Origin: Candidatus Nomurabacteria bacterium
GTDB lineage: Bacteria; Patescibacteriota; Minisyncoccia; Phycocordibacterales; UBA9973
Length of the DNA stretch: 41,182 nt
Reading direction: 5' to 3'
Assembly: GCA_023267115.1 (NCBI GenBank)
Contig: JAHFNV010000003.1
Coordinates: 1 to 41,182, forward strand
Of the stretch, positions 19,651-38,030 are shown piece by piece. The stretch's first letter is position 1; every line of letters starts with the position of its first letter. Below the pieces are notes generated by a model. That model was given only the letters and a program-made list of their open reading frames with translations. It had not been told where the DNA came from and searched no databases. Both the position numbers and the translations under genes were made by a program.

Positions 19651-19899
19651 TTAAGCATACTTAGGAAACAATAATTTAATGTAAGTGCCATCAGTGTGAA
19701 ATGCTGATTTTGGAATTTCTTTTTGTTGTTTATGTAAAACTTCAAAATAACCCAAGGCGGCTTCCCGTATATTAGATTCAGCCTCGGCAAAAGTATCGCC
19801 AAAAGAAGATAAATGATTTAGTTCGGGAATAGTAGCGATTACTTGCCCAGAATCCTTATCATTCTCATATTCGATTTTGTATGAAAATTCGTTGCTCAT
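19651..19899 (-). CDS. hicB: HicB-like antitoxin
   Basis: 82 aa: ..YENDKDSGQVIATIPELNHLSSFGDTFAEAESNIREAALGYFE. It lies immediately upstream of hicA. Confidence 0.6.
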   Translation of the reverse strand: MSNEFSYKIEYENDKDSGQVIATIPELNHLSSFGDTFAEAESNIREAALGYFEVLHKQQKEIPKSAFHTDGTYIKLLFPKYA

Positions 19900-19905
19900 A
19901 TTCTT

Positions 19906-19937
19906 AACTATACACTAAAAATCTTTTGATTGCAATA
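19906..19937 (-). promoter_or_regulatory. Conserved TA-cassette promoter block, copy A (leaderless geometry)
   Basis: On the minus strand: TTGCAA-17-TATAGT, then 7 nt, then the hicB ATG. 30 of 32 positions are identical to 20632-20663. Confidence 0.55.
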
Positions 19938-20131: not shown

Positions 20132-20165
20132 CTACCAAGCAAAGTGCGCGAAGGCTTTGTTGGCT
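20132..20165. repeat. 34-bp perfect direct repeat, distal copy (duplicate of the rpsG 3' end including its stop)
   Basis: ctaccaagcaaagtgcgcgaaggctttgttggct is identical to 21320-21353. Confidence 0.95.
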
Positions 20166-20433: not shown

Positions 20434-20625
20434 CTATAATCCGAGTTTCTTAAAAAGAAGGCTTTGCGATAGATATTTCTTTTGTTTTATTTCTTTTCGA
20501 GCTTGTTCTATTTCTTTCAGGTGCAAGAAGGAACCAAAAAGACGCTCAAAAGACTGCTCAATCTTTTTGAGATAACTGTACTCCTCCGCTGGAATTGCTA
20601 TTGTATTTTTCGTTTGAGTGGACAT
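20434..20625 (-). CDS. Putative cognate antitoxin (63 aa, family unclear)
   Basis: Small helical ORF 6 nt upstream of the RelE/ParE gene. Confidence 0.5.
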   Translation of the reverse strand: MSTQTKNTIAIPAEEYSYLKKIEQSFERLFGSFLHLKEIEQARKEIKQKKYLSQSLLFKKLGL

Positions 20626-20631
20626 AGAGTC

Positions 20632-20663
20632 AACTATATACTAAAAAGCTTTTGATTGCAATA
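20632..20663 (-). promoter_or_regulatory. Conserved TA-cassette promoter block, copy B
   Basis: On the minus strand: TTGCAA-17-TATAGT, then 7 nt, then the antitoxin ATG. Confidence 0.55.
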
Positions 20664-21319: not shown

Positions 21320-21353
21320 CTACCAAGCAAAGTGCGCGAAGGCTTTGTTGGCT
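21320..21353. repeat. 34-bp perfect direct repeat, proximal copy (the functional 3' end of rpsG)
   Basis: Identical to 20132-20165. It encodes ..ANKAFAHFAW*. Confidence 0.95.
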
Positions 21354-23083: not shown

Positions 23084-23329
23084 ATGGCGAAAATATGCGT
23101 GATCACAAAAAAGAGTTCAGTGGTCGGTGGCGGATATTCAAACCGCACTCGCGCCACTAAATTCAACCCGACGGGCAAAGTGCGAAAATACACCAATCTT
23201 CAAAAAAAGAGGGTTTTTATTCCGGAACTCAATAAATCTGTCAAAATCGAAGTCTCCGCCCGCGGCCTCCGCACCATGAAAAAAAATGGAGTTTACACCA
23301 CTCTCCTTAAAGCGGGGCTAGTAAAATAA
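23084..23329 (+). CDS. rpmB: 50S ribosomal protein L28
   Basis: MAKICVITKKSSVVGGGYSNRTRATKF.PTGK... Confidence 0.85.
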   Translation: MAKICVITKKSSVVGGGYSNRTRATKFNPTGKVRKYTNLQKKRVFIPELNKSVKIEVSARGLRTMKKNGVYTTLLKAGLVK

Positions 23330-23362: not shown

Positions 23363-23695
23363 CTAAACAATTTTAAAACCTTCTTGCTCTGCAAGTTTAA
23401 CAAACTCGCTACTACTAGAATATTTTAAAAGAGCGACATTACCCGTCGCATCTACTCTGTAACGATTCATTCCTCCGGCGCCGTAAATAATATAACCAAG
23501 ATCTTTTTTCCCACTTTCCAACCAAGCTAAAGCGCCAGCAATATTATACTCGTCCCATCCTTGTTGTTGCCGGTTCCACGAATCTCCTTCAATTTTAACC
23601 AACGTAGCAATCGTCTCCTCTGGATGAGTTTTCAAGTTTCGAGGTGGATTTTCCTGTCCGCCTCTTAGATTTGGCATATCATTAAATTTATTCAT
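23363..23695 (-). CDS. Hypothetical protein (about 110 aa)
   Basis: The start was set at the internal ATG 23695, which lies 6 nt downstream of TATAAT (23707-23702). The longer tracked ORF would translate the promoter. Confidence 0.45.
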   Translation of the reverse strand: MNKFNDMPNLRGGQENPPRNLKTHPEETIATLVKIEGDSWNRQQQGWDEYNIAGALAWLESGKKDLGYIIYGAGGMNRYRVDATGNVALLKYSSSSEFVKLAEQEGFKIV

Positions 23696-23791
23696 AAGAT
23701 TATTATACTCTTTTAGAATTAAAAAGTAAGGTGGGAAGAGCGAACTCAATCCACTAGGTCTTGCCTAGTAGTTTCCTGGTGGTTTTAAGCT

Positions 23792-23832
23792 GGCACAAAA
23801 GTCAGAGCTGTTCCCTTTTTGCCGGAGCGGCC
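23792..23832. repeat. 41-bp perfect direct repeat, distal copy (duplicate of the DEAD-box helicase 3' end)
   Basis: ggcacaaaagtcagagctgttccctttttgccggagcggcc is identical to 25245-25285. In frame it reads RTGRSGKKGTALTFVPA* with its own stop. Confidence 0.95.
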
Positions 23833-23869
23833 AGTACGACTATTTTTTTTAATGTTCTTAATACGCACG

Positions 23870-23903
23870 GCCGTGTTTATAAAGAAATATATAAGAATAC
23901 TAA
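23870..23903. repeat. Palindrome-containing cassette-end motif, copy 1
   Basis: aatacgCACGGCCGTGtttataaagaaatatat. About 80% identical to 24497-24530. It lies just 3' of the gene 23920-24480. Confidence 0.6.
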
Positions 23904-23919
23904 GAACAAATAACGATAT

Positions 23920-24480
23920 TTACAAATTAAAATGCTTTTCTAGCCTATCTTTATTTGTGATATCTCTAACTAAAGCAAAATGCACATACTTCCCTATCCC
24001 TAAATAGTTAGCAATAAAATCAATCTCTTTCTGACACGGATATGGGTAAATCCACACGCTGTCATTAAATTTTACAAAATCCAGCTCTTTTATTTTTAAA
24101 CGAAATAAATCTCGTCTTCTTCTCTGTTTTTCAGGAATATCAAAAATCACCAGCCTAAAGTGTCTGTCCCAAATCTTAACTTTCCCTATTTCCAAATTTT
24201 CATAATCAAATCTTAAAAAGATCTTCCGCCCGTTTTCGGTCAGTACAAGTCTTTCCTCACTGCCAACCGTCTCAATAGAGATCAGCTTTTGTCGCCTTAA
24301 TTTTGAGAAGTATAATGATGTATTTGTTGGTTTCTTATTTAGTCCAAAAATTTCTTTTATTAGAGTTTTTGTAATTTTGTAACTTGTCCGTCTGTTCGCT
24401 AGGGCAACAGAAATACCAATCCCCATACCAAGAGCGCGGATAATTTTTCCTGAGTTTGATTCTTTATCTATTATGCGCAT
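23920..24480 (-). CDS. PaaX-like / Cas2-fold putative transcriptional regulator
   Basis: WDRHFRLVIFDIPEKQRRRRDLFRLKIKELDFVKFNDSVWIYPYP, the PaaX C-terminal/Cas2-like pattern, preceded by a wHTH-like segment. Confidence 0.55.
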   Translation of the reverse strand: MRIIDKESNSGKIIRALGMGIGISVALANRRTSYKITKTLIKEIFGLNKKPTNTSLYFSKLRRQKLISIETVGSEERLVLTENGRKIFLRFDYENLEIGKVKIWDRHFRLVIFDIPEKQRRRRDLFRLKIKELDFVKFNDSVWIYPYPCQKEIDFIANYLGIGKYVHFALVRDITNKDRLEKHFNL

Positions 24481-24496
24481 ATTTATATGCTATCAT

Positions 24497-24530
24497 AATA
24501 CACGCGGCCGTGTCTATAACGAACATATAT
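24497..24530. repeat. Palindrome-containing cassette-end motif, copy 2
   Basis: aatACACGcggcCGTGTctataacgaacatatat, just 3' of the gene 24531-25211. Confidence 0.6.
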
Positions 24531-25211
24531 TTATTTTTTTAGTCTCAAGCCGAAAACAAATTCATACATTGGCCCCGCTACAAAACCAAAAGTGAAAGCG
24601 AACAATAGTTCCTCGATTGGAATACCAAAAACGAAAATTCTAGAAATATTATCCAAGAGCCACCAGCTCTGGACTAAATTTGGGAAAATAAGAAGGATAA
24701 AAATCTCGAAAAATAAAGTTATTAAACCAAGTAAAAGTCCGCTATAAAAAGCATGTTTAAAAAGATCTTTGCGAATAATAATTGTTACGATTCCAGCGAA
24801 TAAAAAAGTGATCGACGAAATATATATTGAGTTAATATGCAAAACCGCAGTGCCAACAAAAACAGCAAACAACCCAAAAATTGTTAATGCAACTGCGAAG
24901 TACGGGTGGCCTTGCATATGTCTTTTTGAAAACCTTTTGCCAAAAAATTCTTCATAGATCACTCCGATAATGCCGCCAGTAGCAAACATATATAATAAAT
25001 CTTCGATTCCAAATACACCGAAACTAATAATGTAAGACGGATGCCAATAATCAGCCCCGAAAAAATATTGGGTTAAGCCAAATGGAGCGGCTAAAATAGA
25101 AACAATTATCATTTCCCTGCGTAAATCTTTTCGCGCAATAAAAAATATTGCCCAAATTAAGAGCAGAAACATATCAGCAACAATATATGCGTAATGCAGA
25201 TTATGAAACAT
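24531..25211 (-). CDS. Polytopic membrane protein, lycopene-cyclase-domain-like
   Basis: About 7 TM spans and two acidic motifs, FGIEDLLYMF and GIPIEELLFAF, that resemble the PxEE motifs of CrtYc/d domains. TGTATAAT lies 7 nt upstream of the ATG. Confidence 0.4.
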   Translation of the reverse strand: MFHNLHYAYIVADMFLLLIWAIFFIARKDLRREMIIVSILAAPFGLTQYFFGADYWHPSYIISFGVFGIEDLLYMFATGGIIGVIYEEFFGKRFSKRHMQGHPYFAVALTIFGLFAVFVGTAVLHINSIYISSITFLFAGIVTIIIRKDLFKHAFYSGLLLGLITLFFEIFILLIFPNLVQSWWLLDNISRIFVFGIPIEELLFAFTFGFVAGPMYEFVFGLRLKK

Positions 25212-25237
25212 CGTCTACATTATACAATAAAATAGAA

Positions 25238-26482
25238 CTACCCAGGCACAAAAGTCAGAGCTGTTCCCTTTTTGCCGGAGCGGCCGGTTCGGCCGATCCG
25301 ATGCACATAGGTGTTGTAAGTTTGGGGAATATCGTAGTTGATAACGTGGGTAACATCTGGAATATCCAGTCCCCGAGCGGCCACGTCAGTGGCGATTAAT
25401 ATATTTATTTTATCTTTTTTAAATAAATCCAAGGTACGAATACGTTCGCGGCTTCTCTTGTCGCCATGAATAGCCCCGACTTTAAATCCTAATTGGGAAA
25501 GTTCACGAGCCAGAGTATCCACCGCGTGCTTCATCTCCCGGAAAATTAAAACTTTATCCGAACCGTCTTTTTTCAAAACTTCCTCCAGCTTTTGCAATTT
25601 TTCTTCTTTGTTTTTGGTGCGAACTACATCTTGGTCTATATTTTTAGCTGTCTCACCAGAAACTACCGAAATAAAAACGGGGGCTTTCAAAAATTGACCG
25701 GTTAACTTTTTTATTTCCGGAGAAAGGGTGGCTGAAAAGCAAAGAGTTTGCCGTTCCTTGGGAGTTTTATCAAGAATAAAAACCATATCATCCCTAAAAC
25801 CCATATCCAGCATTCTATCGGCTTCATCCAGCACAACACTATAGCAGGTTGATAAATCCAAAATTTTTCTATCTAAAAGATCGCGCAGTCTGCCCGGAGT
25901 GCCAATCACAAATGACACTCCCCTTTGTAGCTCACGAATCTGGCGCATGATTGGCAGTCCTCCCACGCAAGCCACCGAAAACATCCCGAACCCAAAAGCA
26001 AGATTTCTAAAATCAGATTCTATCTGGAGCGCCAACTCGCGAGTAGGCGCCATGATCAACACTGTTTCCTTCTTATTTTTGCCTTTGGTTTTTGCAATTT
26101 TCTCTATCAATGGCAAAAGAAAAGCTGCCGTTTTGCCAGTGCCAGTGTTGGCCATCCCGAAAACATCTAGGCCTTTTAGAACTGAAGGTATAGCTTGATC
26201 TTGAATCGGCCGAGGATGAATGAAACCAGCTTTGGCTATATTTTTATGCAGTTGTGCATCAAAAGGAAAATCCGCGAAGGTATGTTTGGATAGGTATGGT
26301 TTTTCTTCTAGGTGCATACCCTTTTTAACGAAACGGGAAAAATCTATCCGCTCGCCACGGGATCTGACACTACTTTTCCTATGGCCGCCAAAACGAGAAC
26401 GAGAATTATTAAATTGTTTTGCACGGCGTGCAAATTTAGGATTTCCAAATTTCTTTGGACTCCCAGAGTAACGTGTGTACAT
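25238..26482 (-). CDS. DEAD-box ATP-dependent RNA helicase with a basic N-terminal tail
   Basis: Q motif, AxTGTGKT, VLDEADRMLDMGF, SAT, HRIGRTGRSG. Confidence 0.93.
   Translation of the reverse strand: MYTRYSGSPKKFGNPKFARRAKQFNNSRSRFGGHRKSSVRSRGERIDFSRFVKKGMHLEEKPYLSKHTFADFPFDAQLHKNIAKAGFIHPRPIQDQAIPSVLKGLDVFGMANTGTGKTAAFLLPLIEKIAKTKGKNKKETVLIMAPTRELALQIESDFRNLAFGFGMFSVACVGGLPIMRQIRELQRGVSFVIGTPGRLRDLLDRKILDLSTCYSVVLDEADRMLDMGFRDDMVFILDKTPKERQTLCFSATLSPEIKKLTGQFLKAPVFISVVSGETAKNIDQDVVRTKNKEEKLQKLEEVLKKDGSDKVLIFREMKHAVDTLARELSQLGFKVGAIHGDKRSRERIRTLDLFKKDKINILIATDVAARGLDIPDVTHVINYDIPQTYNTYVHRIGRTGRSGKKGTALTFVPG
25245..25285. repeat. 41-bp perfect direct repeat, proximal copy (in the helicase 3' end)
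   Basis: Identical to 23792-23832. Confidence 0.95.
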
Positions 26483-31293: not shown

Positions 31294-31322
31294 GCGATAC
31301 TAATCTACGAATTCATGCGAAT
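31294..31322. repeat. 29-bp block identical to 32315-32343, immediately 5' of the rplK ATG
   Basis: gcgatactaatctacgaattcatgcgaat. It contains TACGAAT and TGCGAAT heptamers, and a third TACGAAT lies at 31325-31331. Confidence 0.9.
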
Positions 31323-31337
31323 TATACGAATAGAAAC

Positions 31338-31715
31338 TTAGGAATCAAGACGGACTACACGTACTGGCTTTAAATATCTATTTCTAAAATTAACAATCAG
31401 ACCTAATTTATAATTACTGGCTTGTAAATATTTCTGCATTTGATAATAATCTTCCTTCAAAATTAAAGGCTTGGCTTTTAGATCTACAAGAATCTTATTA
31501 TCTATTGTAAAATCTACCTTATTTGTATAACGATTGTCAATCATTTCCATCGGCAACTCCTTTTCTCTCTCAAAATTGACATTTTTTTCTTTGAATAGCT
31601 TTTCAAGAGCATCTCCGTACTGCTTCTCTCTACAATATCTCCCCAAGTTATTATGAACTTTAAACAATAAACCACTTATTATATAAGACAACTCTTTATA
31701 GATTATTTCCGTCAT
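31338..31715 (-). CDS. GxxExxY-family protein (PD-(D/E)XK-like fold)
   Basis: LGRYCREKQYGDAL..., VDFTIDNKILVDLKAK...YYQMQKYLQASNYKLGLIVNF. Confidence 0.65.
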   Translation of the reverse strand: MTEIIYKELSYIISGLLFKVHNNLGRYCREKQYGDALEKLFKEKNVNFEREKELPMEMIDNRYTNKVDFTIDNKILVDLKAKPLILKEDYYQMQKYLQASNYKLGLIVNFRNRYLKPVRVVRLDS

Positions 31716-31720
31716 ATGTT

Positions 31721-31761
31721 ATTCGTTTCATTCGTATGTATATTTGTGTCATTCGTATCGC
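31721..31761. repeat. Inverted heptamer array (ATTCGTT, ATTCGTA, ATTCGTA) ending in GTATCGC
   Basis: Heptamers at 31721, 31730 and 31751. The terminal attcgtatcgc is the inverse of gcgatac.aat at 31294. Confidence 0.8.
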
Positions 31762-31765
31762 ACTT

Positions 31766-32314: not shown

Positions 32315-32418
32315 GCGATACTAATCTACGAATTCATGCGAATCTGCGAATTAAATTTATTCGTGTGCCCTATTCGTAAGGGTTCTTAAACTATTCGTAT
32401 CATTCGTTCCATTCGTAT
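32315..32418. repeat. Gene-less copy of the heptamer-array inverted-repeat element (secE-nusG spacer)
   Basis: The same 29-bp block, then TACGAAT, TGCGAAT, TGCGAAT, followed by ATTCGTG, ATTCGTA, ATTCGTA, ATTCGTT, ATTCGTA. Confidence 0.85.
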
Positions 32419-32430
32419 ATTGGTGTCGAG

Positions 32431-37260: not shown

Positions 37261-38030
37261 TGTAGACGTCCAACATCTATTATAGACGTCCAACATCTAC
37301 ATTTTAATTTTCGTGAAAATCAATGGGAGCGAATTGCTTAATCGAACCATCTTTAGAAACTGACACCTTGCCTCTTTCTTCTCGAATAATTGAAATAATT
37401 TCAGTGCTGTGTTTTAAAAAATTTTTATATCCACCAAATATTTTCAAAAATTTCCTTCCCTCAACGGGGTTAACAAGATGAAAATTTCTGGTCTTATATT
37501 CCTGTTCACTTGTACGGATCAAATATTTTTTATTTTTAGGAATGTCATGCACGCGATAGTTCCACATGACATAAGAAAAAATCATTTCAAAATAATTTTC
37601 ACGTTCGACGTACGAAGATTTAAATCTTCCCTGCATTAGAGATCCACTACGTTTATGTCTATCATTAAAATATTTTGTGTAGCCACCTAGTAGGCGTTTC
37701 ATAAATTCGCTAATACCTCTATCTAATTCTTGTTTTAAAATTAAATGAAAATGATTAGGGTTCAAGCAATACTCCACTATAGATATCATTTTCTTTTTCT
37801 TATGTAGACGTTGAACGTCTACATTTTCACGAAGTGCAATCTGAACACTACCTACTGGATCTTTGTATGAGAATAATTTTAAGCAAAGTAGAAAGCGTTC
37901 GACATCTTTGTCATCAGAAAAAATATCACGTTTGTCTACCCCTCTGTTGTAAACATGATAATACGAACCATTAATAAAAGAATGTTTCCTCATCTTTATA
38001 TGATAACAAAATAGATGTCCAACGTCTACT
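37261..38030 (-). mobile_element. Minimal IS200-like / REP-associated (RAYT-like) element
   Basis: A single Y1-HUH transposase gene flanked by the 17-nt imperfect palindrome TAGAYGT-CCA-ACRTCTA: one copy at 38012-38028 and two tandem copies at 37263-37279 and 37283-37299. Confidence 0.65.
37304..37993 (-). CDS. IS200/IS605-family Y1 HUH transposase (RAYT-like)
   Basis: YYHVYNRGVDKRDIF, HUH motif NHFHLIL, GSLMQGRFKS, and a downstream Tyr-containing helix. Confidence 0.75.
   Translation of the reverse strand: MRKHSFINGSYYHVYNRGVDKRDIFSDDKDVERFLLCLKLFSYKDPVGSVQIALRENVDVQRLHKKKKMISIVEYCLNPNHFHLILKQELDRGISEFMKRLLGGYTKYFNDRHKRSGSLMQGRFKSSYVERENYFEMIFSYVMWNYRVHDIPKNKKYLIRTSEQEYKTRNFHLVNPVEGRKFLKIFGGYKNFLKHSTEIISIIREERGKVSVSKDGSIKQFAPIDFHEN

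Follow-up and report, generated by a model that had tools for sequence, protein, structure and literature searches.

Direct repeats of a helicase gene end around a composite, integrase-free island at a helicase-rpmB insertion hotspot in Patescibacteria

Insertions that duplicate a long stretch of their target have been described for restriction-modification units under the name of insertion with long target duplication (Nobusato et al. 2000; Furuta, Abe & Kobayashi 2010, PMC2853133). Such inserts are integrase-free and flanked by target repeats of 30-400 bp, some of which overlap gene 3' ends; most cases come from naturally competent bacteria, and they have been proposed to pass through cycles in which they insert, are amplified or excised via the repeats, and invade anew (PMC2853133). 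Campbell-type insertion-duplication and transformation-driven merodiploidy are likewise known from competent bacteria, e.g. Streptococcus pneumoniae (PMC3784515). Within Patescibacteria, natural competence with integration of the DNA through homologous recombination has been described for the Saccharibacteria (PMC10633639). The genomes of Patescibacteria are tiny and contain few recognisable mobile elements, and the gain and loss of their accessory genes is poorly understood. An initial annotation of the DNA analysed here considered the insertion of small cassettes at the 3' ends of housekeeping genes to be undescribed, which is too strong, as integrase-free insertions with target repeats are on record for restriction-modification genes (PMC2853133).

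The window, i.e. the whole analysed stretch of 41,182 nt, belongs to a contig of Nomurabacteria/Paceibacterota (Patescibacteria). It contains a 41-nt block from the 3' end of a DEAD-box RNA helicase gene in two exact occurrences with 0 mismatches and a spacing of 1,453 nt (Table 1), and none of 100 dinucleotide-preserving shuffles yielded any match to it. The perfect duplication reported in the initial annotation is thus confirmed as real and beyond chance. The resident gene terminates in ...RTGRSGKKGTALTFVPG*, while the distal fragment, h', which comprises the 41-nt block, two upstream codons and the stop, is in frame and terminates in ...RTGRSGKKGTALTFVPA* with its own TAA, again as first noted.

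Table 1. Features of the helicase-rpmB interval in the window, in order of position.
Feature	Position	Strand	Basis or remark
rpmB, ribosomal protein L28	23084..23329	+	Pfam Ribosomal_L28; synteny kept in 74 genomes
ORF128, further cargo	23363..23749	-	no family match; between h' and rpmB, beyond the repeat pair
Distal helicase 3' fragment h'	23785..23838	-	contains distal repeat copy 23792-23832
Downstream palindromic motif copy, core CACGGCCGTG	23860..23895	.	sequence comparison
Cargo 2: 186-aa protein, winged-helix-like region and PaaX_M/Cas2-like domain	23920..24480	-	Pfam PaaX_M 9e-19
Upstream palindromic motif of PaaX-like gene, core CACGGCCGCGTG	24495..24530	.	overlaps promoter-like site
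Cargo 1: polytopic membrane protein, 226 aa, lycopene-cyclase domain	24531..25211	-	Pfam PF18916 Lycopene_cyc 6e-16
Helicase-membrane gene spacer, promoter-like TTATTGTATAAT	25212..25237	-	homologous to L054 junction
DEAD-box RNA helicase gene, 414 aa	25238..26482	-	Pfam DEAD 5e-48, Helicase_C 2e-33
Resident copy of the repeated gene end (last 54 nt of helicase gene)	25238-25291	-	part of helicase gene
Proximal 41-nt perfect repeat copy	25245..25285	.	within helicase 3' end

The perfect block is bordered on either side by homologous but diverged codons. Upstream, the homology extends for 6 nt rather than the approximately 9 nt suggested earlier (CGA ACC versus CGT ACT), and both changes are, as had been stated, synonymous, each being at a third position. 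Downstream, it continues as CCT GGG TAG in the gene and CCA GCT TAA in h', so that identity ends 7 nt short of the end of the stop codon, five of these seven nucleotides differ and the proteins end in VPG* and VPA*, respectively. Both are natural ortholog endings, the helicase C-terminus RTGRSGKKGTALTFVP[A/G]* being nearly invariant among 120 orthologs. At the nucleotide level, identity between the helicase 3' ends of any two species is only ~76%, and the identical runs are short (median 9 nt, longest 33 nt, in 2,628 between-species pairs). Since these runs never exceed 33 nt, the 41-nt identity goes beyond conservation of the protein motif, and a chance or conserved motif is ruled out by the shuffles together with the run distribution. 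Neither an empty-site allele from the same species nor a circular form could be found: an exact look-up of the helicase protein gave nothing, the helicase of the window being unique to this contig, and the 41-mer has no exact occurrence in the metagenome contig collection.

The convergent partner of the helicase gene, rpmB, forms the opposite border of an insertion hotspot. The two genes are convergent in the lineage (74 genomes with conserved synteny), and the search for empty sites in relatives was successful at the level of species: in 27 of the 74 the helicase end abuts rpmB, with stops at most 100 nt apart and, at the minimum, a 4-nt overlap. At 42 of the 74 sites the gap is filled with 0.25-4.4 kb of small cargo, including ParE, HicAB, ParD/HigB-like, PaaX_M/Cas2-like, Y1_Tnp, Fic, patatin and membrane proteins. 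A fragment of either gene end is kept at 14 of the 42 filled sites, and at 28 none is detectable. The generality surmised from the window holds for the lineage. Among 81 compared loci (the window and 80 relatives, denoted by L numbers), helicase-end fragments are present in at least nine genomes (window, L016, L022, L034, L036, L039, L045, L071, L079) and rpmB-end fragments in at least twelve (L005, L010, L014, L022, L036, L040, L045, L048, L059, L062, L071, L079), L059 having two copies, with tandem cassettes and rpmB-end copies between them. Five more metagenome or MAG genomes (L081, L084, L125, L130, L137) share the architecture, and rpsG-end fragments provide two cases (window and L050). 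With r' for the rpmB-end fragment, two layouts recur, H-r'-X-h'-R and a head-to-head fusion r'|h'; r' lies immediately after the helicase stop in L010, L040 and L045, and h' immediately before the rpmB stop in L016 and L022. In L022 and L036 it is h' that adjoins rpmB, and the resident helicase gene does not. A role of the fragments as terminators for the convergent neighbour is unsupported: the empty site of L004 has no terminator-like hairpin, the h' region folds no better than its shuffles, and an Rfam search for structured RNA in the region gave nothing above noise.

Such recurrence also bears on the artefactual explanation, according to which a short repeat caused two metagenome sequences to be assembled as a chimera, or the two copies are no more than separate occurrences of a conserved motif. 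The window is indeed a MAG contig, and a 624-nt ENA contig that is 100% identical to part of the membrane gene suggests fragmented assembly of the population elsewhere. The same architecture recurs, however, in numerous assemblies that were produced independently by different studies and with different assemblers, the gene order on the flanks agrees exactly with that of the relatives, and neither the shuffles nor the between-species comparison gave a match or an identical run of 41 nt or more. A chimera is therefore very unlikely, and we regard this explanation as a whole as extremely improbable.

The island between the repeats contains, as first described, genes of a membrane protein and of a PaaX/Cas2-fold protein (Table 1), but it is not the single two-gene unit that the initial annotation took it for. 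The membrane protein gene is a rare accessory gene (34 homologs found in all), which is located at this hotspot in L054 and L137 as well and has an unrelated context in L138. The spacer next to it in the window, promoter included, and the helicase end CCT GGG TAG are homologous to the corresponding junction of L054, with 86% column identity, and L054 has neither the PaaX gene nor the repeat. Conversely, L081/L086 and L084/L085 have a unit of palindrome, PaaX-like gene, palindrome and helicase fragment and lack the membrane gene; the same unit is present in L125 and L130, whose contigs begin inside the PaaX gene, which makes the membrane gene not scorable there. A single two-gene cassette is ruled out by this separate distribution: the island is a composite of the membrane gene and of a palindrome-bracketed PaaX-like gene with a helicase-tail fragment. 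The repeat pair therefore need not delimit the latest insertion. Moreover, a helicase fragment equivalent to h' follows the PaaX-like gene in L081, L084, L125 and L130, i.e. in five genomes with the window, so that the two were apparently inherited together and the pair in the window may reflect a later gene conversion instead of the insertion as such. The same palindrome pair brackets the PaaX-like homologs in every context examined, its upstream copy being a putative operator. At the position of ORF128 the relatives have different, unrelated ORFs.

Divergence of the fragments from their own genes is that of functional alleles. Aggregated over fragments, the differences are distributed as 29/17/97 over the three codon positions, and differing codons are synonymous in 87 and non-synonymous in 36 cases. 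The rpmB fragment of L045 is 95% identical to the gene of L069 and 82% identical to its own gene, which ranked only 27th; own genes ranked 21st for L040, 4th for h' of L022 and 9th for h' of L039. Because of the synonymous bias and the better matches to genes of other species, the copies would appear to be alleles brought by recombination rather than decayed local duplications, in agreement with the early reading of the two copies as resident and incoming.

These data bear directly on insertion with long target duplication, in which staggered breaks ~30-110 nt apart would be filled in, both copies would be native initially, and later allelic recombination of the resident genes would make them resemble different alleles. 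Duplication of the whole junction would be expected to give H-r'-X-h'-R, all three repeats in the window are perfect, and restriction-modification genes provide documented cases, in which repeats of 46-47 bp overlap the 3' ends of genes (PMC2853133). On the other hand, identity in the window stops early, at differing nucleotides that still encode a natural ending; the continuation of the in-gene copy is the natural helicase-membrane gene junction; third positions account for 68% of the differences against the ~45% that we estimate for neutral decay of one copy; several fragments are nearer to foreign genes; and in L022 and L036 it is h', not the resident helicase gene, that lies next to rpmB. 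We thus find this route unlikely.

With respect to dedicated recombination machinery, neither the island, as had been claimed for its cargo, nor the scanned ORFs of the window yielded a recombinase domain. No integrase was present in the sampled cargo of either hotspot across the 81 loci, in the larger inserts and broken-synteny loci L014, L005, L039, L070 and L071, or downstream of the helicase gene in L070 and L071. The window has a Y1_Tnp gene at 37304-37993, ~12 kb from the island. A classical transposon or insertion sequence, with its short fixed duplication of 2-14 bp, was rejected in view of repeats and fragments of variable length (26-113 nt) and of an island without transposase. Phage or plasmid origin was likewise rejected: degenerate helicase-end and rpmB-end patterns had 0 matches among the 2.9 million viral contigs of IMG/VR, and the PaaX-like protein has no relatives in IMG/VR viral contigs or PLSDB plasmids. 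A search with PADLOC matched none of the island proteins to a defence system.

The window contains three targets, namely the helicase gene, rpsG and the nusG/rplK leader, and the lineage as a whole the helicase gene, rpmB and rpsG, which makes at least three or four unrelated sequences. This variety of target genes argues, in line with the initial annotation, against a single sequence-specific att site and for a homology-dependent rather than a sequence-specific process. The gene ends are not baggage carried between hotspots, as the rpsG-fusA spacer holds no helicase or rpmB fragments and fragments are local. Within one target, left boundaries of the fragments do cluster. Counted over the last 150 nt, the helicase fragments of the window, L016 and L022 begin at position 94-97, and by eye that of L130 starts at the Arg codon of the window; the rpsG fragments of the window and L050 both begin no more than a few nt from position 117. 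This clustering is suggestive of a favoured break point or of descent from one ancestral fragment, and not of random crossover substrates.

Taken together, these observations allow an assessment of site-specific integration, for which a tyrosine or serine recombinase would have to act in trans on cassettes that are miniature non-autonomous integrative elements or remnants of larger ones. Their attP would hold a gene 3' end, and integration would restore the gene and leave attL/attR repeats. Direct repeats of a gene 3' end in which the element copy completes the frame are the classic signature of such elements; the clustered boundaries and the tandem cassettes of L059, split as by accretion at an att site, point the same way, and selection on an attP copy turned functional gene end would also give the synonymous bias. 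Against it stand the lack of an integrase at all the places searched, the number of unrelated targets with repeats of unequal length, and the lack of viral matches to the gene ends and of viral or plasmid relatives of the PaaX-like gene. We consider such integration rather unlikely.

With about even confidence, we instead read the 41-nt repeat as a recombination scar left by homology-driven, Campbell-type integration at conserved gene ends. Small self-contained cassettes would arrive with a ~30-110 nt copy of the 3' ends of one or both flanking genes, the incoming DNA being either a cassette excised via such repeats or a fragment from a related species in circularised or concatemeric form, possibly taken up by competence. 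A single, presumably RecA-type crossover by host homologous recombination between the incoming and the chromosomal gene end (insertion-duplication) would then place the cargo in the chromosome without disrupting the gene, and a partial gene end would remain beyond the cargo. The perfect block in the window would represent the exchange or heteroduplex tract between two parental alleles, and the same repeats could drive precise loss or excision of the cargo, after which the helicase gene would again be functional, with VPA* as its ending. The duplications would persist because stops at empty sites abut or overlap, so that only insertions bringing or duplicating a gene end are viable. The natural junction to the right of the in-gene copy, seen by comparison with L054, counts in favour of this model, and the layouts H-r'-X-h'-R and r'|h' fit a circle that includes a copy of the empty-site junction and recombines at one or the other gene end. 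The low identity and short identical runs between species, which make a poor substrate for RecA-type recombination, count against it. The model also presupposes a cassette already joined to a gene-end copy; the first joining lies outside its account.

An alternative that shares the involvement of transformation is homology-facilitated illegitimate recombination, where a linear helicase-cargo donor would be anchored in the helicase gene and its far end joined within the helicase 3' region of the recipient, whose tail would become the distal fragment. This would account for the variable gene-internal boundaries of the fragments, requires no recombinase, suits a plausibly competent lineage and agrees with the in-gene end and the membrane gene being a contiguous natural arrangement. 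However, it predicts a fully native distal fragment and a coincidental 41-nt identity, which is very unlikely given runs of at most 33 nt; it leaves the foreign-looking fragments and the head-to-head fusions unexplained, and the unit of PaaX-like gene and h' recurs in five genomes. We judge it improbable.

The PaaX-like protein of the island was also compared with its relatives. Orthologs of 65-85% identity are found in several genomic contexts. PaaX_M is the sole PaaX domain to pass, at 67.8 against a Pfam gathering score of 24, and the protein is not a member of the PaaX equivalog TIGR02277 (20.8 bits against a cutoff of 264.55). The C-terminal domain is confident in the AlphaFold2 model, the best matches in a comparison with PDB folds were E. 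coli PaaX and Cas2 proteins, at weak E-values, and some homologs touch the Pfam CRISPR_Cas2 model. The protein thus resembles PaaX and Cas2 in a predicted PaaX_M Cas2-like ferredoxin fold behind a winged-helix-like region, and Cas2 in an invariant FDIPE...R...SVW motif that fits the Cas2-type pattern. Unlike PaaX, it has 186 aa instead of ~300, and Pfam finds no PaaX N- or C-terminal domain; unlike PaaX and Cas2 systems, it has no paa operon, CRISPR array or cas1 nearby and is bracketed by two palindrome copies. As the window contains no CRISPR array or cas gene, a CRISPR-associated identity was rejected in spite of the Cas2-like fold. By analogy to the duplication of repeats by Cas1-Cas2, the palindrome-bracketed gene might itself be an active element that makes long duplications, but we regard this as very unlikely.

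In a wider sense, the hotspot is reproducible, with cargo in 42 of 74 genomes at a point where two essential genes have no neutral space between them, and cassettes enter it together with spare gene ends. Should the process rely on homology and competence, it would account for the movement of toxin-antitoxin and regulator cassettes from species to species in the absence of integrases, and would extend the long-target-duplication class beyond restriction-modification genes. As a tentative extension, which we hold to be possible rather than probable, the clade may swap small cassettes without any dedicated recombinase, a 30-110-nt copy of the ultra-conserved 3' end of an essential gene (helicase, rpmB, rpsG) serving as a portable homology arm ('homing by homology'), by which host recombination would insert the cassette between the abutting essential genes of another species and later excise it precisely; genes would thereby flow between genomes devoid of ordinary mobile elements. 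For annotation, short in-frame gene-tail fragments beside ribosomal-protein operons should be taken as recombination scars and not as genes.

Compared with known systems, the locus resembles insertion with long target duplication in its insert of <20 kb, direct repeats of >30 bp (41 nt here) and lack of a mobility gene, and in repeats whose counterpart in genomes without the insert is a single copy, here in 27 of 74 related species and at species level only. It differs in that the cargo consists of toxin-antitoxin pairs, a PaaX_M/Cas2-like gene and membrane proteins instead of restriction-modification genes, that the events are concentrated at a single site where two convergent essential genes abut, and that the copies, which in that class are both native, differ as functional alleles, some of them foreign. 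With integrase-mediated elements at the ends of tRNA and protein genes it shares a repeat that is the gene 3' end, incoming DNA that supplies the replacement and keeps the gene intact, and tandem accretion (L059); unlike these, it has no integrase in or beside the inserts, which are tiny (0.55-3.3 kb), and uses several unrelated target genes with variable repeat length. In contrast to the described cases of Campbell-type insertion-duplication, mainly laboratory constructs with hundreds of identical bp, the homology would here amount to 30-110 nt between diverged alleles, and the likeness lies in cargo between homologous direct repeats, as a single crossover with circular or concatemeric DNA would produce by host recombination only.

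The 41-mer GGCACAAAAGTCAGAGCTGTTCCCTTTTTGCCGGAGCGGCC occurs exactly twice in the window, and none of 100 dinucleotide-preserving shuffles gave a match. The initial annotation had reported this perfect direct repeat, with a distal copy in frame and ending at its own stop, and we confirm both statements: the distal copy reads RTGRSGKKGTALTFVPA followed by a stop, the resident helicase ends in TFVPG and a stop, and each ending is common across 120 orthologs. It had also claimed about 9 nt of further similarity with synonymous changes only; the changes are indeed synonymous (CGA ACC versus CGT ACT), the extension being two codons upstream, and downstream the homology runs through the stop (CCT GGG TAG versus CCA GCT TAA). 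Between species, the final 54 nt of the helicase gene are 76% identical, and the longest stretch of uninterrupted identity is 9 nt at the median and never more than 33 nt (2,628 pairs). Because such stretches do not exceed 33 nt, the perfect block with diverged homologous codons on either side is most readily interpreted as a tract of exchange or conversion that involved two alleles.

Features around the 41-nt repeat in the window
Feature	Coordinates	Strand	Remarks
DEAD-box helicase	25238-26482	minus	414 aa; Pfam DEAD + Helicase_C
41-nt repeat, copy within the helicase gene	25245-25285		
Membrane protein	24531-25211	minus	226 aa; lycopene-cyclase domain
PaaX_M/Cas2-like protein	23920-24480	minus	186 aa
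41-nt repeat, distal copy (in the partial helicase end)	23792-23832	minus	in frame
ORF128	23363-23749	minus	no family match
rpmB	23084-23329	plus	convergent to helicase

The window corresponds to an entire NCBI contig (41,182 nt) from a Nomurabacteria/Paceibacterota (Patescibacteria) MAG, and its closest helicase orthologs are ~83% identical. Eighty orthologous loci of other species (L001-L080) share the synteny dhfr-thyA-(dCMP deaminase)-helicase> <rpmB-M50>-rpsL>-rpsG>-fusA>. In the 74 genomes with helicase and rpmB on one contig, the stop-to-stop gap is at most 100 nt in 27 (the extreme being a 4-nt overlap), 101-250 nt in 5 and 0.25-4.4 kb in 42 (median 952 nt). The rpsG-fusA spacer is similar, with ~10 nt if empty and 0.4-2.8 kb in ~22 loci. 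Both hotspots hold assorted small self-contained genes, including 15 PaaX_M/Cas2-like genes, toxin-antitoxin pairs (ParD/HigB-like, ParE, HicAB), a hairpin-flanked Y1_Tnp gene, and GIY-YIG, Fic, patatin, 23S-IVS four-helix and membrane proteins. Neither an integrase nor another recombinase was found in the cargo of either hotspot or in the scanned window ORFs, which bears out the initial remark that the island lacks one; nor was a recombinase found downstream of the helicase in loci with broken synteny.

Partial 3' ends of the helicase (h') and of rpmB (r') recur at this site. Regular-expression matching located another in-frame helicase tail in L016 (cargo HicBA), L022 and L034 (cargo PaaX_M-like gene). 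Comparing loci with themselves, and scanning them sensitively with every orthologous gene end, further revealed h' in L036, L039, L045, L071 and L079, and r' in L005, L010, L014, L022, L036, L040, L045, L048, L059 (two), L062, L071 and L079. Of the 42 filled helicase-rpmB sites, 14 contain a gene-end fragment. L050 provides a second rpsG-end case, in which the repeat runs ~35 nt beyond the stop codon, through a hairpin. The fragments are confined to their own hotspot. The initial suggestion that the architecture is general in this lineage is thus supported; its recurrence rules out a chance origin of the repeat and makes an assembly chimera a very unlikely source, and an artefact is hardly credible.

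Other repeats were observed in the window. The rpsG 3' end recurs as a perfect 34-nt direct repeat (20132-20165 and 21320-21353), which finishes exactly at the stop codon and encloses ORF155 (no family match) and an antitoxin/ParE pair, with a HicB/HicA pair between its distal copy and fusA; the L050 rpsG-end fragment begins at nearly the same codon. The two toxin-antitoxin operons in the rpsG-fusA gap are each immediately preceded by a copy of a 41-nt repeat (85% identity; 19897-19937 and 20623-20663) that contains a good promoter, TTGCAA-17-TATAGT, as if the modules carried a promoter in common. Directly upstream of the nusG and rplK start codons stands a 29-nt perfect direct repeat (31294-31322 and 32315-32343), which is 5' leader sequence, not a gene 3' end, and encloses nusG and an inserted 125-aa PD-(D/E)XK_3/GxxExxY gene (31338-31715). 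Short repeats of the ATTCGTA/TACGAAT type cluster around the latter gene (31718-31765 and 32344-32430), and such clusters recur near ribosomal-protein genes of relatives (L012 4113/11759; L069 3523/10783).

The repeat copies were compared codon by codon in 23 of the 24 pairs examined, one being not alignable. Differences at codon positions 1, 2 and 3 numbered 29, 17 and 97, with 87 synonymous and 36 non-synonymous differing codons; the third-position share was 68%, versus ~45% expected by our own estimate for local duplication and neutral decay of a non-coding copy. Several fragments are nearer another species' gene than the resident one: r' of L045 is 95% identical to L069 and 82% to its own gene, which ranks 27th, and the own gene ranks 21st for r' of L040, 4th for h' of L022 and 9th for h' of L039. 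In L081, h' encodes GTALTFV and the helicase itself ends in GIALTFV, each before the stop. From these comparisons we infer that the copies are alleles, not decayed duplicates. In each pair, a functional gene of another genome supplied one of the copies or replaced the resident end; both cases imply that genomes recombined with one another at these ends. We consider it unlikely that a genuine long target duplication was followed by allelic replacement. In the window, the in-gene copy is followed by T GGG TAG, the promoter-like TTATTGTATAAT and the membrane gene. This sequence is homologous to the junction between the helicase and membrane genes in L054, a locus without the PaaX-like gene and without the repeat; this speaks against a simple duplication of the target site that stops at the block.

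Flank mapping revealed the recurrent order H-(cargo)-r'-X-h'-(cargo)-R, where H and R are the resident helicase and rpmB; X stands for a PaaX module in L022 and L036, and for the Y1_Tnp gene with its hairpin flanks in L045. The r' fragment lies immediately past the helicase stop in L010, L040 and L045, and h' immediately ahead of the rpmB stop in L016 and L022. In L071 (9572-9643) and L079 (1641-1732), r' and h' are fused head-to-head at their gene-internal ends with 0-5 nt between them, as would be expected of a circularised-fragment joint, or of module loss from r'-X-h'. L059 (6375-8129) has two successive cassettes with an rpmB-end copy before each, three copies in all, and L062 (10217-11064) has a 113-nt repeat of 98% identity that contains a bidirectional terminator hairpin. 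One ParD/HigB-like toxin-antitoxin cassette is common to L059 and L062 and recurs in L047, L063 and L069, there at the rpsG-fusA hotspot. A 229-aa Y1_Tnp (IS200-like) gene is located at 37304-37993 of the window; in L009 and L045, genes that share its Pfam domain and have perfect-hairpin flanks (TGTCAAACA-N5-TGTTTGACA) sit in the helicase-rpmB hotspot.

The window's island, initially taken for a single two-gene insertion, is by its gene content composite: the membrane gene occurs without the PaaX-like gene in L054, and the PaaX unit without the membrane gene in L081/L086 and L084/L085. With 34 homologs, the membrane gene counts as a rare accessory gene; it is found at the helicase-rpmB hotspot also in L054 and in L137, where a ~65-nt rpmB-end repeat brackets it, and in an unrelated context in L138. 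In another assembly, a 624-nt contig (P0241, ENA ERZ27297709) encodes 167 residues 100% identical to the window's membrane protein, indicating that the same population was sampled elsewhere.

Orthologs of the PaaX-like protein are 65-85% identical and constant in length. The closest (75-85%), in L081/L086, L084/L085, L125 and L130, occupy the same site and are each followed by h', whose length and decay differ between genomes; the L125 and L130 contigs start within the PaaX gene and are not scorable for the membrane gene. More distant orthologs follow a large gene that by eye resembles one for isoleucyl-tRNA synthetase, or lie beside genes that by eye resemble rpoD and dnaG, with no gene-end repeats in these contexts. 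A palindromic motif of ~26-38 nt stands up- and downstream of the gene in every context. More widely, each PaaX_M/Cas2-like gene examined has two copies of one palindrome of 26-41 nt as its flanks (window 23860-23895/24495-24530; L004 11231/11671; L010 9303/9841; L090 4955/5592; L126 265/887; L134 4801/5483). This bracketing spans three subfamilies of PaaX_M/Cas2-like genes and at least five genomic contexts, and the palindrome sequence co-varies with the protein subfamily. Since the motif is absent from empty junctions, we infer that palindrome-gene-palindrome is a discrete unit of ~0.7 kb. The window's upstream palindrome overlaps a promoter-like site, as an operator would, and the two palindromes could serve as operators or mark where a small selfish module ends. 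The C-terminal half of the protein gave a confident Cas2-like fold model, preceded by a winged-helix-like region; among PDB structures, the top fold hits were E. coli PaaX and Cas2 proteins, at weak E-values. PaaX orthology was rejected, and PADLOC gave no match. The window contains more CGGCCG sites than expected (14 versus 4.7), four of them inside the island (23868-23873, 24505-24510, 25281-25286 and 25290-25295). Two are the cores of the PaaX palindromes and two lie in helicase motif-VI codons (TCGGCCGA, CCGGCCGC), the exact start of the 41-nt block and of several h'; the overlap may be fortuitous, or may reflect a common break or binding site.

Our preferred reading, to which we give an even chance, is host-mediated, homology-driven (Campbell-type) integration, with repeats that would also allow precise excision. 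A single crossover in either gene end would join the chromosome to circular or concatemeric DNA carrying the cargo and a copy of part of an empty-site junction. The recurrent arrangements fit this model, which predicts a wholly foreign r' in L045 and a wholly foreign h' in L022; the fragment ranking agrees with both. Because empty-site stops abut or overlap, only insertions bringing or duplicating a gene end would keep both essential genes intact, which would account for the scars at the helicase-rpmB site. Campbell-type integration is favoured by cargo without a recombinase, by several unrelated targets (three in the window), by variable repeat length, by allele-like copies and by the natural competence with homologous integration demonstrated in Saccharibacteria (PMC10633639). 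Against it, neither an integration intermediate nor a same-species empty allele was found, the first joining of cassette to gene end is not accounted for, a diverged 50-nt homology is a poor exchange substrate, and fragment start points cluster. The initial annotation had argued against a single sequence-specific att site; the use of several unrelated targets also speaks against one, whereas the clustering of starts within one target does not. Homology-facilitated illegitimate recombination is, in our judgement, distinctly improbable. A trans-acting integrase seems rather doubtful, given that no integrases were found and that searching IMG/VR with degenerate gene-end patterns gave zero matches. 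Overall, the initial observation is confirmed and its interpretation partly supported.

The arrangement had also been called undescribed, which is true only in part. The closest described phenomenon is the 'insertion with long target duplication' of restriction-modification units, which likewise lack mobility genes and have flanking repeats of >30 bp, some overlapping gene 3' ends; those cases are mostly from competent bacteria, and their mechanism is not established (PMC2853133). The present case differs in its cargo and lineage, in that events gather between abutting convergent essential genes, and in that the repeat copies are apparently different alleles.
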